A DNA stretch of 64,000 nucleotides, taken from NCBI GenBank assembly GCA_965219415.1, contig OZ244742.1, positions 672,001 through 736,000 on the forward strand. Direction: 5' to 3'. The DNA comes from Candidatus Marinacidobacterales bacterium (lineage in GTDB: Bacteria > Acidobacteriota > Vicinamibacteria > Marinacidobacterales > DATDRI01). Position 1 is the stretch's first letter. Each line of letters starts with the position of its first letter. The notes below the pieces were generated by a model, which searched no databases, was not told the DNA's origin, and saw nothing but the letters and a program-made list of their open reading frames with translations. The position numbers were made by a program, and so were the translations under genes. Of the stretch, positions 49,424-54,689 are shown in pieces.

Positions 49424-50713
49424 CGTGTGGTAGTCATCACAAGGACCACGCTAGGACGGCGATGTCGAAGGTCTCGGCGGAGCGTGTCAACAACATTGAG
49501 ACACCCGCGAGCTGCATTTAGTGGAGCCTCGATTGGTGTCAGGAGGGTCGTGACGTCGATTTTGTCCACGTCTGCCTGGATCGAGATCTCTTACGTGGAG
49601 CGGAAAAAGGGGCTACCCCAGGTATGGACCACCCAGAGAAAGTGGCTCCTAGGCGATCCTCGCGCGTGTTTTTGTCAGGTGGGGGGTTGATCCAAGCCTG
49701 AGACGGCAAAACAGGGGTTGAGGTTTTCCACGGACGAAGCGTTCGGGATGAGCCCGATGAGCGGCGAGAAGCGTGTGTCGGCGAGCCGCGTTGAGTTGTT
49801 CGGCGCGACCCTGATGAACGACGGCCGGTGTCATGAGACCGATTCCCGAGTGGCGGTGTTCGAGGTTGTAGTAGTCGAAGAAGTTGCGGCAGAACAGGCG
49901 AGCATCCTCGATGGAGCCGAAACGACGCGGGAACTGGGGGCAATACTTCAGCGTCTTGAACTGAGACTCGGAGTAGGGATTGTCGTTCGAGACGTGAGGT
50001 CGCGAGTGAGTCTTGGTAACGCCGAGGTCGGCCAGAAGCAAGGCGACGGACTTGCTTCGCATCGAGCTGCCACGATCCGCGTGGATGGTGAGCTGGCCTG
50101 GTTCGATGCCTTGCTTGCGACAGCTCTCGACGATGAGACGACGAGCGAGCTCGGCACTTTCTCGGTGAGCCAGCATCCAACCCGTGACGTAGCGGGAGAA
50201 GATGTCCAGGATCACGAAGAGGTAGTAGTAGGTCCACTTGACGGGGCCACGAAGCTTGGTGATGTCCCAGGACCAAACCTGGTTGGGGGCTTCGGCCAAC
50301 AGCTCCGGCTTGCGGTAGTTCGGATGGCACAGTTGGTTCCGACGTTCTCTGACTTCCCCCTGCTCCGCCAGAATCCGATACATCGTACGAATCGAGCAGT
50401 AGTAGGTTCCCTCGTCCAGAAGCGTGGCCCACATTGCGGCGGGCACTTTGTCGACAAACCGCTCGGAGTGCAACGCGCCGAGCACCTGCTCTCGCTCGGT
50501 CTCGTCGAGGGCTCGGTGGGGCCGAGGACGACGCTTCGGATTGGACGTCACCGGCCGCCGCCGGCGATACAGCGTGGAGCGAGCCACTCCCAGAGCCTCG
50601 CAGGCTTCCGCTGTCTGTCCAATCCGACCCGCCAGGTCCTCGGCCGCCGCCATCAATCGTTCTCGTCGCTGTCTGGGGGATTCAGGGGGATCCCCAGGAG
50701 CTCGGAGGCTTTC

Positions 50714-52090
50714 CTAAGAAACTCCGGTGTGCGGACTCGATGCAGCCGCCTCTACCAACGTGTAGCCTAATTGACGAGCGCGACGCTGGAGGTTGTGGAG
50801 GACCCTCTCCTGATAATGTCTCTCGTAGTAGTCGGTGCCAGGATCGACATAGGCGAGTCCGAAGCGAACGGCGTTGTAGAACAGCACTGCTAACTTTCTC
50901 GCTGTCGCGGTCACTGCCTTCGCCTTGCCGACTCGTGCGCCCACTCGACGGTAGAATGCACCAAGGGCGGTCTGCGTTCGCCCAACGTTCACCGCAGCGA
51001 TACGAAAGAGCGCGGCGGCGCGATTCGAGGACCGACGCGACTTCGAACTCAGCACGCGGCCGCCCGAGATCTTGTTGCCGGGTGCTAGGGTCAGCCACGA
51101 CGTGAAGTGTTTGGCGGTCGGCCATTTCCGCATGTCGTCACCGCATTCGGCGACGAGTCGCAGAACCGTGTACGGACCCAATCCATGGATCTGGCTCAAA
51201 TCGGCACCCAAGAGGGTATACAGAGCTCCCCGTACATCGAACTTCGGTTCGTTCTTCCCGCTCGCATGTCGGACACGTGGAATCGGCTCGTCGGGCGCAG
51301 TTCGATCGTGGTTCAGCTCGCCTATAGCGGCTTCGACCTCCACGTCGCATTCGGTGACCCTCGCTTGAACGAAGTCATAGAGTTGGAGCTCATGGCGTAG
51401 CGCGAAGAGGTGTTCGAGCCGGTAGTTACCTGTCAGAGCCTCGCGGATCGTTTCGACAGATTGCTTGCATCGGACGTCACGGTACTGGGCAAGCACGTCG
51501 GGCTCGTGAACACCGCCGACTATAGCGCGAATGATCTTCATGCCCGTGACACCTGTAATATCAGTCACTACGTGCTGAAGCTGGACGTTCATCTGCATAA
51601 GGGCTTTCTGCATCCGCTGGATGTGCGTCGCTGCCTGGTTGATGAGGCGTTCACGGTGGCGAAGAAGTGCCCGGAGCCGAACCAACTGACCACGAGGCCG
51701 GAAGCTGCCGCGAAGAAGACCATGCTCGTGCAGCTGCTGTAGCCACTGAGCATCGTTGACGTCGGTCTTCCGCCCTGGGACATTCTTGACGTCACGTGCG
51801 TTGACCAGGAGCACCTCGAACCCGCGCGCTTCCAAGATCTCGAAGGCTGGAATCCAGTACACTCCTGTCGATTCCATAGCGATGGTGGTGATCCCGACCT
51901 CTGCGAGCCAGTCGGCCAACTGGTGTAGGTCGCCCGTGAAGCTTCGAAACGTCCGCACGGACATCTCGACCCGCTCCGGTGGGACCGCAACCACATGGAA
52001 TGTCGCTCCGATGTCGATTCCTGCGGCGTTAACGTGGATGGACGTAATGGATCGTCTGGACGACTTCCGGCGCTTCCTTCTTGTCATCAT
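50714..52090 (-). CDS. IS110 recombinase (DEDD RuvC + Transposase_20)
   Basis: AGIDIG, AMESTGVYW, RKTDVNDA, ISGG serine loop. Confidence 0.95.
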   Translation of the reverse strand: MMTRRKRRKSSRRSITSIHVNAAGIDIGATFHVVAVPPERVEMSVRTFRSFTGDLHQLADWLAEVGITTIAMESTGVYWIPAFEILEARGFEVLLVNARDVKNVPGRKTDVNDAQWLQQLHEHGLLRGSFRPRGQLVRLRALLRHRERLINQAATHIQRMQKALMQMNVQLQHVVTDITGVTGMKIIRAIVGGVHEPDVLAQYRDVRCKQSVETIREALTGNYRLEHLFALRHELQLYDFVQARVTECDVEVEAAIGELNHDRTAPDEPIPRVRHASGKNEPKFDVRGALYTLLGADLSQIHGLGPYTVLRLVAECGDDMRKWPTAKHFTSWLTLAPGNKISGGRVLSSKSRRSSNRAAALFRIAAVNVGRTQTALGAFYRRVGARVGKAKAVTATARKLAVLFYNAVRFGLAYVDPGTDYYERHYQERVLHNLQRRARQLGYTLVEAAASSPHTGVS

Positions 52091-52262
52091 TCCTCCTTCC
52101 GGATTAAACCCGAAAGGAGGGATGGGCGGAAGTTCATCATTTTCCTAAACGGGATCGCCAAATGGCGCCACCACTGTCAAGTCCGCAGCCACCCCCGGAC
52201 CATGTTTTTTTACGGGATCGAAATCACCAGTAAGCGGACGGCCTCTCCTCTCGAGTAGCCAA
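52091..52262 (-). ncRNA. Candidate bridge RNA of IS110 copy A
   Basis: Two CGATCCCGT-N8-ATG units carrying AAAAAAAC (target-like) and TTAGGAAA (identical to the donor junction). Confidence 0.7.
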
Positions 52263-53699: not shown

Positions 53700-53871
53700 T
53701 CCTCCTTCCGGATTAAACCCGAAAGGAGGGATGGGCGGAAGTTCATCATTTTCCTAAACGGGATCGCCAAATGGCGCCACCACTGTCAAGTCCGCAGCCA
53801 CCCCCGGACCATGTTTTTTTACGGGATCGAAATCACCAGTAAGCGGACGGCCTCTCCTCTCGAGTAGCCAA
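53700..53871 (-). ncRNA. Candidate bridge RNA of IS110 copy B
   Basis: Same sequence as 52091-52262. Confidence 0.7.
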
Positions 53872-54689
53872 GAGGGTAGCCGTCAGGGAGTTTCTGGTTC
53901 AACAGGAGGCGCGCCCGCGCTCGAAGGTTTTTTTGGATCTCGAGCATCGTTTCCACCCGAGCGAGGCGACGCTTCAGTCGCGTGTTCTCGCGCGCGAGTT
54001 CCTTGATTCGAGGATCCTCGACCTTGCCCTTTCGTCCCCGCTTGATCGCGGCGAGCCCGACCCCCGCCATCTCATCCCGCTGGCGACGCCAACTCGACAG
54101 GAGCGACGAGTACAGTCCTTCTCGACGCAGAAGCGCTCCCACATCGCCATCACCCTTGCAGGCATCCGCTTCGCGCAGTATCCGCAGCTTGTACTCCGCG
54201 GTAAAGCGTCGACGCTTCGCTTGTTCACTCACTTCGGGATCCGGGGCCACCACTGCTTCGCGGCTGGCGGGTTCTACAGTCGCCCTACCGGCTCCTTCCG
54301 ACCCCGCCAAGTTCGTCTTCTCAGTCAACAGACTCATTCATGATCCTCCTCCGCCTTCCACACTAATTTCAAGGGGCGAAGTGTCTCAAGCATGTTGGCA
54401 CGGAGGGGTGCGGAATGGCAACGCCAGAGCAGTCGCCCGTAGAAAGCCTACACGCTGCCGAAGCTGCGGCGCACAGGCCTCAACGGCTGCGGCTAGCTCT
54501 TTCTCCTGAGGCTCGATGCCTACTACGAACGCCGACGCATTCGCATACCGGAAAGCCAGTCGACCGTCTCCCGAGCCAACTTCGAGTACTCTCGCGTTGC
54601 TAAAATCCGTGGCCTGCAGGAGAACCTGGGATTCTACTCCGTTGGGGTCGAGTTCAGTCGCCATCTCGTGTACTCCATGAAGAATCGCG

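Follow-up and report, generated by a model that had tools for sequence, protein, structure and literature searches.

A tandem IS110-family element with a putative bridge RNA in the frameshift site of an IS3-family element of a Candidatus Marinacidobacterales genome

The subject of this study is an insertion sequence (IS) of the IS110 family, present as two head-to-tail copies inside an IS3-family element of Candidatus Marinacidobacterales bacterium. It lies in a stretch of 64,000 nucleotides (assembly GCA_965219415.1, contig OZ244742.1, positions 672,001 to 736,000), which we call the window and to which all coordinates refer unless another contig is named (Table 1). On its minus strand, 50713-53927 form a perfect tandem dimer of a 1606-bp element; that the span 50710-53934 consists of two head-to-tail units, 100% identical and with a period of 1609, was a point little stressed in the initial annotation, which had described an IS110 element with readable bridge-RNA guides. 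Each unit has a non-coding leader of 228 nt (e.g., 52091-52318) upstream of an open reading frame (ORF) of 458 amino acids, whose stop codon TAG falls, in copy 2, within the terminal TTAGG of the element. The two parallel units of 20 nt that the annotation had picked out in the non-coding end were located at 52138-52157 and 52201-52220, at a spacing of 63 nt, with counterparts in the other copy at 53747-53766 and 53810-53829. The sequence it had taken for the left part of the donor junction, TTAGGAAA, equals the right end of the element.

The ORF encodes a recombinase with Pfam matches to PF01548 (DEDD_Tnp_IS110, E-value 4e-24) and PF02371 (Transposase_20, E-value 1.8e-12). A search of the PDB with the single recombinase sequence gave no match, and IS621 of E. 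coli was reached by profile only, a profile of four homologs matching the IS621 transposase 8wt6 with an E-value of 2.2e-12. D26, E73, D110, D113 and S342 align to the catalytic residues of IS621 and are invariant among the four homologs; S342 lies in an ISGG motif and aligns with the serine of ESGS in IS621. The traits of the IS110 family are found here in the form of an N-terminal DEDD RuvC-like domain, a C-terminal Tnp domain with a catalytic serine, a long upstream non-coding region (the 228-nt leader) that probably codes for a conserved structured RNA, judging from compensatory changes among 58 homolog rows, guides that spell the left target plus core and the right end plus core, and a dinucleotide core, AA, which is common to target and donor at both junctions and exact at three sites when compared with five intact targets. 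Head-to-tail junctions of right end and left end are present both in the genome assembly and in homolog loci.

The interrupted host, which we call type A, has the make-up of an IS3-family element: a helix-turn-helix (HTH) orfA (PF01527), a DDE orfB (PF00665) in the -1 frame, an A-rich heptamer at which frameshifting is predicted, and inverted repeats. Read in the orientation of the recombinase, its flanks run GATCC-A7 / CCTTCG...TTAGGAAA / GCCTCC, the right side ending in GGAAA before GCCTCC. An intact type A copy 4 kb away reads ATC CAA AAA AAA GCC (GATCC-A8-GCC), with orfB in the -1 frame of orfA and the run forming the heptamer A_AAA_AAA. The initial annotation had matched the A7 unit to the occupied target and had recognised the slippery motif and its -1 orfB frame in the intact IS3, and both observations are confirmed, the intact run lying at 58281-58288. 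In the interrupted copy no stop codon ends the orfA frame at the insertion, and it extends by 36 codons within the IS110 leader (53819-53927; ORF 53819-54337, 172 amino acids), so an OrfA with an altered C-terminus could be made and transcription from the IS3 promoter could enter the bridge-RNA region.

Counting the A's at the junctions is informative about the core. If the donor is TTAGG-AA-CCTTCG and the core consists of the two nucleotides AA, the numbers balance precisely at either kind of outer junction found in the genome (8+2 = 7+3 and 8+2 = 6+4). If the internal junction of the dimer, TTAGG-AAA-CCTTCG, is taken as donor, the 8+3 = 11 A's present beforehand become 10 once the element is inserted. 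The outer junctions are exactly conservative, and the odd item is the internal dimer junction, with one A too many, because the donor guide reads UUAGG-AA, the head-to-tail junctions of homologs have two nucleotides and the outer counts are exact. The earlier remark that the left junction has one A fewer than conservative recombination predicts is thus correct as a count if the internal AAA is taken as donor, but the donor junction has two A's and the supposed deficit disappears; the AA core proposed alongside it is upheld by the junction counts and by homologs. A donor junction with three A's and a left end beginning with A were ruled out, as neither fits the outer junctions, and A7 variants of IS3 were ruled out as the true targets, all five intact copies having A8.

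The genome holds five identical units at three sites, together with a 38-bp right-end remnant. At the second site, on contig C3, an identical dimer lies in an IS3 whose flanks are 79-83% identical to those of type A; at the third, a single copy lies in a sequence-unrelated IS3 (type B) with the junctions TTTCT-A6 / ...GGAAA / ACGGCGG, where the intact type B copies (4/4) read CTA AAA AAA ACG. All three complete insertions, examined for the A-runs on which the initial annotation had staked its reading, lie in frameshift A8 runs of three different IS3 elements, the A8 being seen in the five intact copies, and contigs of the public runs X1 and X4 join the same element to three further IS3 variants. 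The core occupies heptamer positions 5-6 in both type A and type B, although their A8 runs differ by one base relative to the frame. Genome-wide, an IS3 orfA/orfB boundary accounts for 32 (both flanks) to 38 (either flank) of the 2298 runs of at least six A's (1.4-1.7%). The remnant (C3:4546039-4546076) is a past insertion outside IS3: its junction, TTAGG-AA-AGCGCT, leads directly into the right half of a short repeat, present in about 190 copies, that reads ..TTTGC-A7-GCGCTTACGC...

A search for related loci confirmed 582 candidate stretches, of which the best 80, drawn from many phyla, were compared. An oligo-A guide (CCCGU-N-AAAAA in unit 1) is carried by 49 of these 80, and 26 of the 49 have an IS3-type flank on at least one side (phmmer, with the genome's own IS3 proteins as queries), several of the other contigs being too short to tell. 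In terms of Pfam domains, upstream flank ORFs carry HTH_Tnp_1 in 20 of 37 cases and the IS630-type HTH_29/32/33 in 3-7 of 37, while downstream ORFs carry rve in 18 of 38 and DDE_3 in 3 of 38. Typical homolog flanks read ..GAG CGC GAC ATC CTA AAA AA / .. / G GCC GCG GCC TAC TTC GCG and, joined by eye at a single AA core, continue in frame as ERDILKK AAAYFA. Annotations of plasmids omit pseudogenes and so cannot reveal interrupted IS3 genes; with flanks read directly, the left flank of a Citrobacter plasmid copy is DERDILKK, and a Rhizobium plasmid relative with the guide UACCU-AA sits at TACCT-AA.

Not all relatives use IS3. The oligo-A relatives L058, L060, L061, L063, L066, L068, L069 and L070, from metagenome-assembled genomes (MAGs) of Alphaproteobacteria, lie in ..FKK or ..SFKKK A-runs of genes with IS630-type HTH and DDE_3 domains, and therefore another family of IS, whose A-runs are likewise frameshift or coding motifs, is used as well; around a fifth of the oligo-A homologs are in contexts that are neither IS3 nor IS630. 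The element belongs to a widespread clade whose guides spell Leu-Lys-Lys-Ala (CTA AAA AAR GCN), the conserved coding and slippery motif of IS3, with a minority in IS630-like A-runs.

The guides themselves follow a parallel plan of CCCGU, five variable nucleotides and the core: AAAAA-AA in unit 1 equals the left target plus core, and UUAGG-AA in unit 2 equals the right end plus core. Homologs with 44-76% protein identity share the parallel units ...AYUGGWG-spacer-CCCGU-N5-core-C/A, in which the two units agree at positions 6-7 of the N8 segment, with AA in the present element and AG in the more distant relatives; position 8 is fixed as C in unit 1 and as A in unit 2. In multi-copy relatives, whose element ends were set by comparing copies, unit 1 equals the left flank (AACTA-AG in G034, TTGAC-AG in G003 and G016) and unit 2 the right end (TTAGG-AG, TCGAA-AG). 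When all alignment columns were scanned against all junction positions, the left target coincided with the unit-1 columns along one in-register diagonal (39-49 of 48-49 rows) and the right end with the unit-2 columns (49-50 of 50 rows). This is the covariation of the N8 segments with target and donor that the initial annotation had asked to be tested, and it extends to relatives with an AG core and other targets, among them G034, G003, G016 and G042, in which both units differ to match.

The leader RNA would form two internal loops on the same plan. In 57-58 of 58 homolog rows the bases of the target-loop basal stem, GGCCG:UGGUC, can pair, and compensatory changes occur (its first pair is GC in 36, UA in 14, AU in 4 and GU in 3); RNAalifold recovers the same stem. 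Going 5' to 3', the stem encloses 9 nt on the 5' side, then a UGG..CCC hairpin, whose invariance makes it uninformative, and then GU, the left target guide and C. In the donor loop, the inner hairpin is paired in 49-57 of 52-57 rows with covariation, and the basal stem has partial support (30-57 of 57-58). The minimum-free-energy fold of the leader alone gave a structure without these loops (z -2.4), and comparative folding was used instead.

For the right half of the target, we propose CCGCUU as the guide, on the 5' side of the target loop and 5' of unit 1. In a fixed register, the 5' side nnGCUU makes 152 of 210 possible pairs, compared with 127 +/- 4.9 under the null, a value reached in 0 of 20000 shuffles (42 unique pairs, 45 rows). 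An unbiased scan of the columns ranks two combinations highest, that of right target +2 with the guide C and that of +3 with the guide G, and a compensatory case is seen in GCUU occurring with RGC targets and GAUU with GTC targets. The fit to the ideal RGCGG is 3/5 for type A (AGCCT), 4/5 for type B (AACGG) and 4/5 for the remnant site (AGCGC). The right donor guide, tentatively GAUGA, is suggested by a GAYNN motif 3 nt after the donor guide that pairs with left-end +5 to +1 in 120 of 195 cells compared with 105.5 +/- 4.5 (p ~0.001), this being the best of seven offsets and chosen post hoc. The GGTTT that the initial annotation had proposed for this role is indeed present at 52106-52110, but the role itself is not borne out: of 39 homologs, 5 have the reverse complement of the core and two left-end bases downstream of unit 2, where chance would give 5.3 +/- 1.9. 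GAUGCU in G034 was also ruled out as a right donor guide, as it forms the 3' strand of a long-range stem and is itself conserved in G042, whose left end differs.

The anatomy of the element, the junction arithmetic, the covariation of guides with target and donor, the covariation of the stems and the enrichment at IS3 sites are matters of direct observation. We consider it highly probable that they reflect an IS110-family IS with a DEDD/Ser recombinase and a leader-encoded bridge RNA, which recombines at an AA core into the frameshift heptamer of IS3; the RNA-guided element aimed at other IS that the initial annotation had envisaged thus finds support in the IS3-site enrichment and the guide covariation. 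Its target may, as the annotation supposed, be a motif that these IS would find hard to mutate. We infer that the leader RNA is transcribed and directs recombination. Within its target loop, AAAAA-AA on the 3' side would spell the left target and the AA core, and CCGCUU on the 5' side would complement the right target; its donor loop would carry UUAGG-AA on the 3' side, spelling the right end and the core. A circular form, a presumed intermediate with the junction TTAGG-AA-CCTTCG, would then recombine with the target at the AA core, and the element would come to lie at heptamer positions 5-6 of A_AAA_AAR, the -1 frameshift site of IS3-family elements. The insertion would separate orfA from orfB, so that the IS3 copy concerned would be killed.

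A number of results weigh against this interpretation, some of which concern site use. Every NNNNN-AA-NNNNN site of the genome was scored against both target guides at the 10 non-core positions: 1322 loci have at least 8 matches, with 9 matches at 110 of them and all 10 at another 4, and the occupied sites have 8. The 114 better-scoring loci are all empty, including 7-8 copies of a type D IS3 with a perfect right target; 20 copies of a type C IS3 are also empty, and the repeat of about 190 copies, an equally good match, holds one decayed insertion only. Guide pairing alone does not account for site choice, and because better-matching sites are empty, either the guide model is incomplete, or there is a second determinant, or retention after insertion matters. 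In the covariation analysis, nine AG-core rows are circular for the left target, the left junction having been located with the guide itself, and the shuffle p-values are optimistic given the non-independence of related sequences. In IS110-family elements the junction of right and left ends in the circle forms a promoter, but a scan for sigma-70 consensus promoters across the internal junction here found 0 sites, and Rfam (evalue mode, 49000-56000) gave no family match. The layout of an IS621-type bridge RNA is not reproduced, the long guides lying on the 3' side of the covariation-supported basal stem; the loop layout thus differs from that of IS621, and the detailed IS621 mechanism is therefore not simply transferable. 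Finally, the extra A of the internal junction might be a homopolymer assembly error, as one run alone, X1, which may be the source sample, shows a contig across this junction, and that contig reaches 27 nt beyond it on one side.

Could the pattern arise from retention rather than aiming? Under such a scenario the element would insert loosely into many A-runs, and only insertions in other IS, where the cost to the host is nil, would survive, so that selection would produce what we see. The 114 equal or better guide matches that stand empty speak for it, as do the decayed insertion in a non-IS3 repeat, the fifth of oligo-A homologs outside IS3 and IS630 contexts and the loosely matched right target of many homologs (+4 and +5 pair in 23-24 of 42). 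We nonetheless regard this scenario as unlikely: the right target guide covaries with the IS3 codons after the heptamer (GCUU with RGC, GAUU with GTC), the insertion register is constant relative to the frame in A8 runs that are offset by one base, the whole guide spells CTA AAA AAR GCN, and 26 of 49 loci is far above the 1.4-1.7% share that IS3 has among A-runs, while selection alone would carry no preference for IS3 over other neutral DNA. Still harder to sustain is the idea that IS110 entered a single IS3 and that the nest was then copied, by IS3 transposition in trans, recombination or horizontal transfer, which would make the sites non-independent. The three host IS3 differ, type A and its relative on C3 having flanks 79-83% identical and type B being unrelated; types A and B do not have the same junction register; other distinct IS3 flanks appear in runs X1 and X4; and homologs of many phyla occur in unrelated IS3 elements. 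Set against these facts, a 97.7%-identical 3' fragment in another genome (G016), at the same position of a near-identical IS3, and the like structure of the two dimers do fit a copied nest, but we consider it very improbable.

The tandem arrangement raises the separate question of whether the element is really single-copy at each site, with the dimers or the extra A produced by misassembly, to which repeats and homopolymers are prone. The same dimer is found at two loci on two contigs, and a 423-nt contig of run X1 crosses the internal junction without an indel, from 52292 to 52714, at a depth of 58.8, like that of the element itself. Moreover, head-to-tail junctions with a core of exactly two nucleotides (AA, AA, AG) occur in 3 of the 80 homolog loci, in other assemblies. 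Among the contigs listed for X2, X4 and X6 none crosses the internal junction, which is uninformative either way. All things considered, an assembly artefact seems improbable to us.

The three homolog loci with a right end, a two-nucleotide core and a left end in succession are L059 (a Mycoavidus MAG scaffold), L073 (a Rhodovulum contig) and L107 (an Acidobacteriota MAG contig), three unrelated relatives, and therefore tandem copies seem to be recurrent in the lineage. Tandem cargo repeats have also been reported for CazIS110-1, as a by-product of its activity in 3 of 96 colonies (bioRxiv 10.1101/2025.10.25.684509). An origin of the dimer in which another copy inserted conservatively at one or the other junction of a copy already in place was ruled out, as it predicts 12 A's in total and 13 are observed. 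Both dimers are identical. The dimer may have had a single origin with a slip of one base, and the two copies may then have moved together by way of the normal junction with two A's. Being off register, the internal junction would presumably be a poor recombination substrate, which would keep the dimer stable.

It is useful to place the element among characterised relatives, as far as the published descriptions cited here go. IS621 of E. coli has the same DEDD RuvC-like and Tnp domains with a catalytic serine and an RNA coded in the leader upstream of the recombinase (Durrant 2024, PMC11208160; Hiraizumi 2024, PMC11208158); it also has two pseudo-symmetric loops, each with a basal stem, an internal loop and a distal hairpin, a two-nucleotide core common to target and donor, and one guide for the left half plus core alongside one complementary to the right half. 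It differs in its protein of about 326 amino acids compared with 458 here, in its CT rather than AA core and in its target, a repetitive extragenic palindromic (REP) element, where the present element has a motif of another IS that is both coding and slippery. The left target guide of IS621 (nt 50-58) lies ahead of a stem-loop (nt 60-71) and its right target guide (nt 77-80) lies after it (PMC11208158), so that the long guides are described on the 5' side of the loops, whereas here both lie on the 3' side, after the invariant CCCGU and following the distal hairpin.

Closer in its choice of target is ISEc21, an IS110-family element with an upstream non-coding region and an RNA-specified target that is described as a conserved coding stretch in IS3-family transposase genes (Siddiquee 2024, PMC11187229); the target here, the -1 frameshift heptamer between orfA and orfB, is set apart from it by description rather than by sequence. 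ISPpu9 and ISPpu10 of Pseudomonas putida are likewise IS110-family elements with repeated RNA-specified targets, which differ in being REP or intergenic hairpins (PMC12288879). ISPpu10 is reported to need a DNA hairpin beside its target in addition to pairing (bioRxiv 10.64898/2026.03.19.712850), and this need could bear on the choice of sites by the present element, since IS3 heptamers have a stem-loop downstream, in this case CTGGGGAT..ATCCCCCAG. CazIS110-1 resembles our element in forming tandem repeats; its tandems are described as reverting to single copies, whereas here two identical dimers are fixed, with an extra A at the internal junction. The bridge-RNA mechanism (Durrant 2024, Hiraizumi 2024) and the targeting of IS3 genes by IS110 elements (ISEc21) are already known. 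In literature searches judged for the most part from listings, we found no report of an IS110 target in a frameshift site, with the caveat that target tables in the supplements of Durrant 2024 and Siddiquee 2024 may list such targets. The novelty lies in the class of target, in a core of AA, in guides on swapped sides and in a dimer that would be locked, and no new principle is involved.

More speculative, and in our judgement falling somewhat short of an even chance, is a broader reading in which the element represents a phylum-spanning IS110-family lineage specialised as a hyperparasite of other IS. Its guide would be fixed on the IS3 heptamer with its Lys-Lys-Ala codons and on IS630 A-runs, with guide sides swapped relative to IS621; a determinant beyond pairing, perhaps the frameshift-stimulating stem-loop in its DNA form, would be needed, and this would explain why better-pairing sites stay empty; and the dimer would be locked here by its off-register junction.

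The dimer lies in a cluster of IS at 47400-61000. At one end of it is a type B IS3, with its rve ORF at 47473-48321 on the minus strand; the interrupted type A IS3 comes next, then an IS256-type gene that is partial (Transposase_mut, 56512-57429), then the intact type A IS3 (57878-59460), which has the opposite orientation, and last an IS30-like gene (HTH_38 and rve, 60050-61003). The two type A copies in the window are inverted, about 3.4 kb apart. Elsewhere in the genome there are two more IS110-family lineages, 47-49% identical (about 7 copies) and about 36% identical (2 copies) to the recombinase studied (e.g., C1:169318-170670, C1:665325-666677 and C3:2134873-2136225), and one of the 47% copies lies about 1 kb from the single copy of our element. 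The short repeat, about 150 bp long with ..CCCTTTGC-A7-GCGCTTACGCTCC.. and some 190 copies (contig C3, e.g., 4520209-4520215), is followed in the copy examined by a 1287-bp element (4520300-4521600) with about 67-88 genome copies at about 98% identity, and may be the landing site of that element.

Table 1. Coordinates of the IS110-family dimer, its putative RNA features and the IS3-family hosts in the window
Feature	Position	Strand	Basis or detail
IS3-family element (type A), interrupted by IS110 dimer	49483-54402	-	terminal inverted repeats 49483-49504 and 54381-54402, 22 nt, 82% complementary; HTH_Tnp_1 on orfA side, rve and rve_3 on orfB side
orfA of interrupted IS3	53928-54337	-	ends in left-junction A7; ORF 53819-54337; PF01527
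orfB (integrase core) side of interrupted IS3	49649-50709	-	begins at right target half GCCTCC; ORF 49649-50656 with rve, rve_3; -1 frame read in intact copy
Left junction A7	53928-53934	-	left target A5 (53930-53934) and core AA (53928-53929); register from intact-copy A8 and homolog junctions
Right junction	50710-50712	-	core AA (50711-50712) and first right-target base A (50710), then GCCTCC
IS110-family element, copy 1 (adjoins IS3 orfA)	52322-53927	-	1606 bp without core; leader 53700-53927; recombinase coding sequence 52323-53699; ORF list, Pfam, identical units
IS110-family element, copy 2	50713-52318	-	1606 bp; leader 52091-52318; recombinase coding sequence 50714-52090 (458 amino acids)
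Internal head-to-tail junction AAA	52319-52321	-	between ..TTAGG (copy 1, right end) and CCTTCG.. (copy 2, left end); core dinucleotide and one A
Target-binding loop (predicted)	52198-52243 (copy 1: 53807-53852)	-	basal stem GGCCG (52239-52243) : UGGUC (52198-52202); encloses right target guide, small UGG..CCC hairpin, left target guide
Left target guide AAAAA+AA	52205-52211 (copy 1: 53814-53820)	-	invariant CCCGU before, invariant C after; left-target diagonal 39-49 of 48-49 rows
Proposed right target guide CCGCUU	52232-52237 (copy 1: 53841-53846)	-	pairs second core A and right-target +1 to +5; ideal RGCGG
Donor-binding loop (predicted)	52126-52186 (copy 1: 53735-53795)	-	basal stem GCGG (52183-52186) : CCGC (52126-52129); inner hairpin CGCC..GGCG
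Left donor guide UUAGG+AA	52142-52148 (copy 1: 53751-53757)	-	equals right end and core; 49-50 of 50 rows
Tentative right donor guide GAUGA	52134-52138	-	3 nt after left donor guide; would pair left-end +5 to +1; 3/5 pair here
GGUUU, earlier candidate right donor guide	52106-52110	-	present; without comparative support
A8 slippery run (CA A_AAA_AAA G), uninterrupted copy of same IS3	58281-58288	+	element about 57813-59515 by offset from interrupted copy; flank BLAST, reading frames, HTH_Tnp_1 and rve ORFs
A8 slippery run, uninterrupted type B IS3 (TTTCT-A8-CGG)	48350-48357	-	same IS3 type that hosts single IS110 copy elsewhere; rve and HTH_21 ORF 47473-48321

These results have consequences for annotation and engineering as well as for the biology of the family. 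For genome annotation, they explain many 'broken' IS3 elements and offer a rule for locating the ends of these IS110 elements. For the engineering of bridge recombinases, they point to a natural AA-core system with a different loop layout, and to a natural example of sites whose use is not predicted by pairing alone. Overall, one transposon lineage appears to have its guide fixed on a single motif that the commonest IS family needs for expression, such that each insertion would disable a competitor, land in host-neutral DNA and find targets in almost any bacterium or plasmid.

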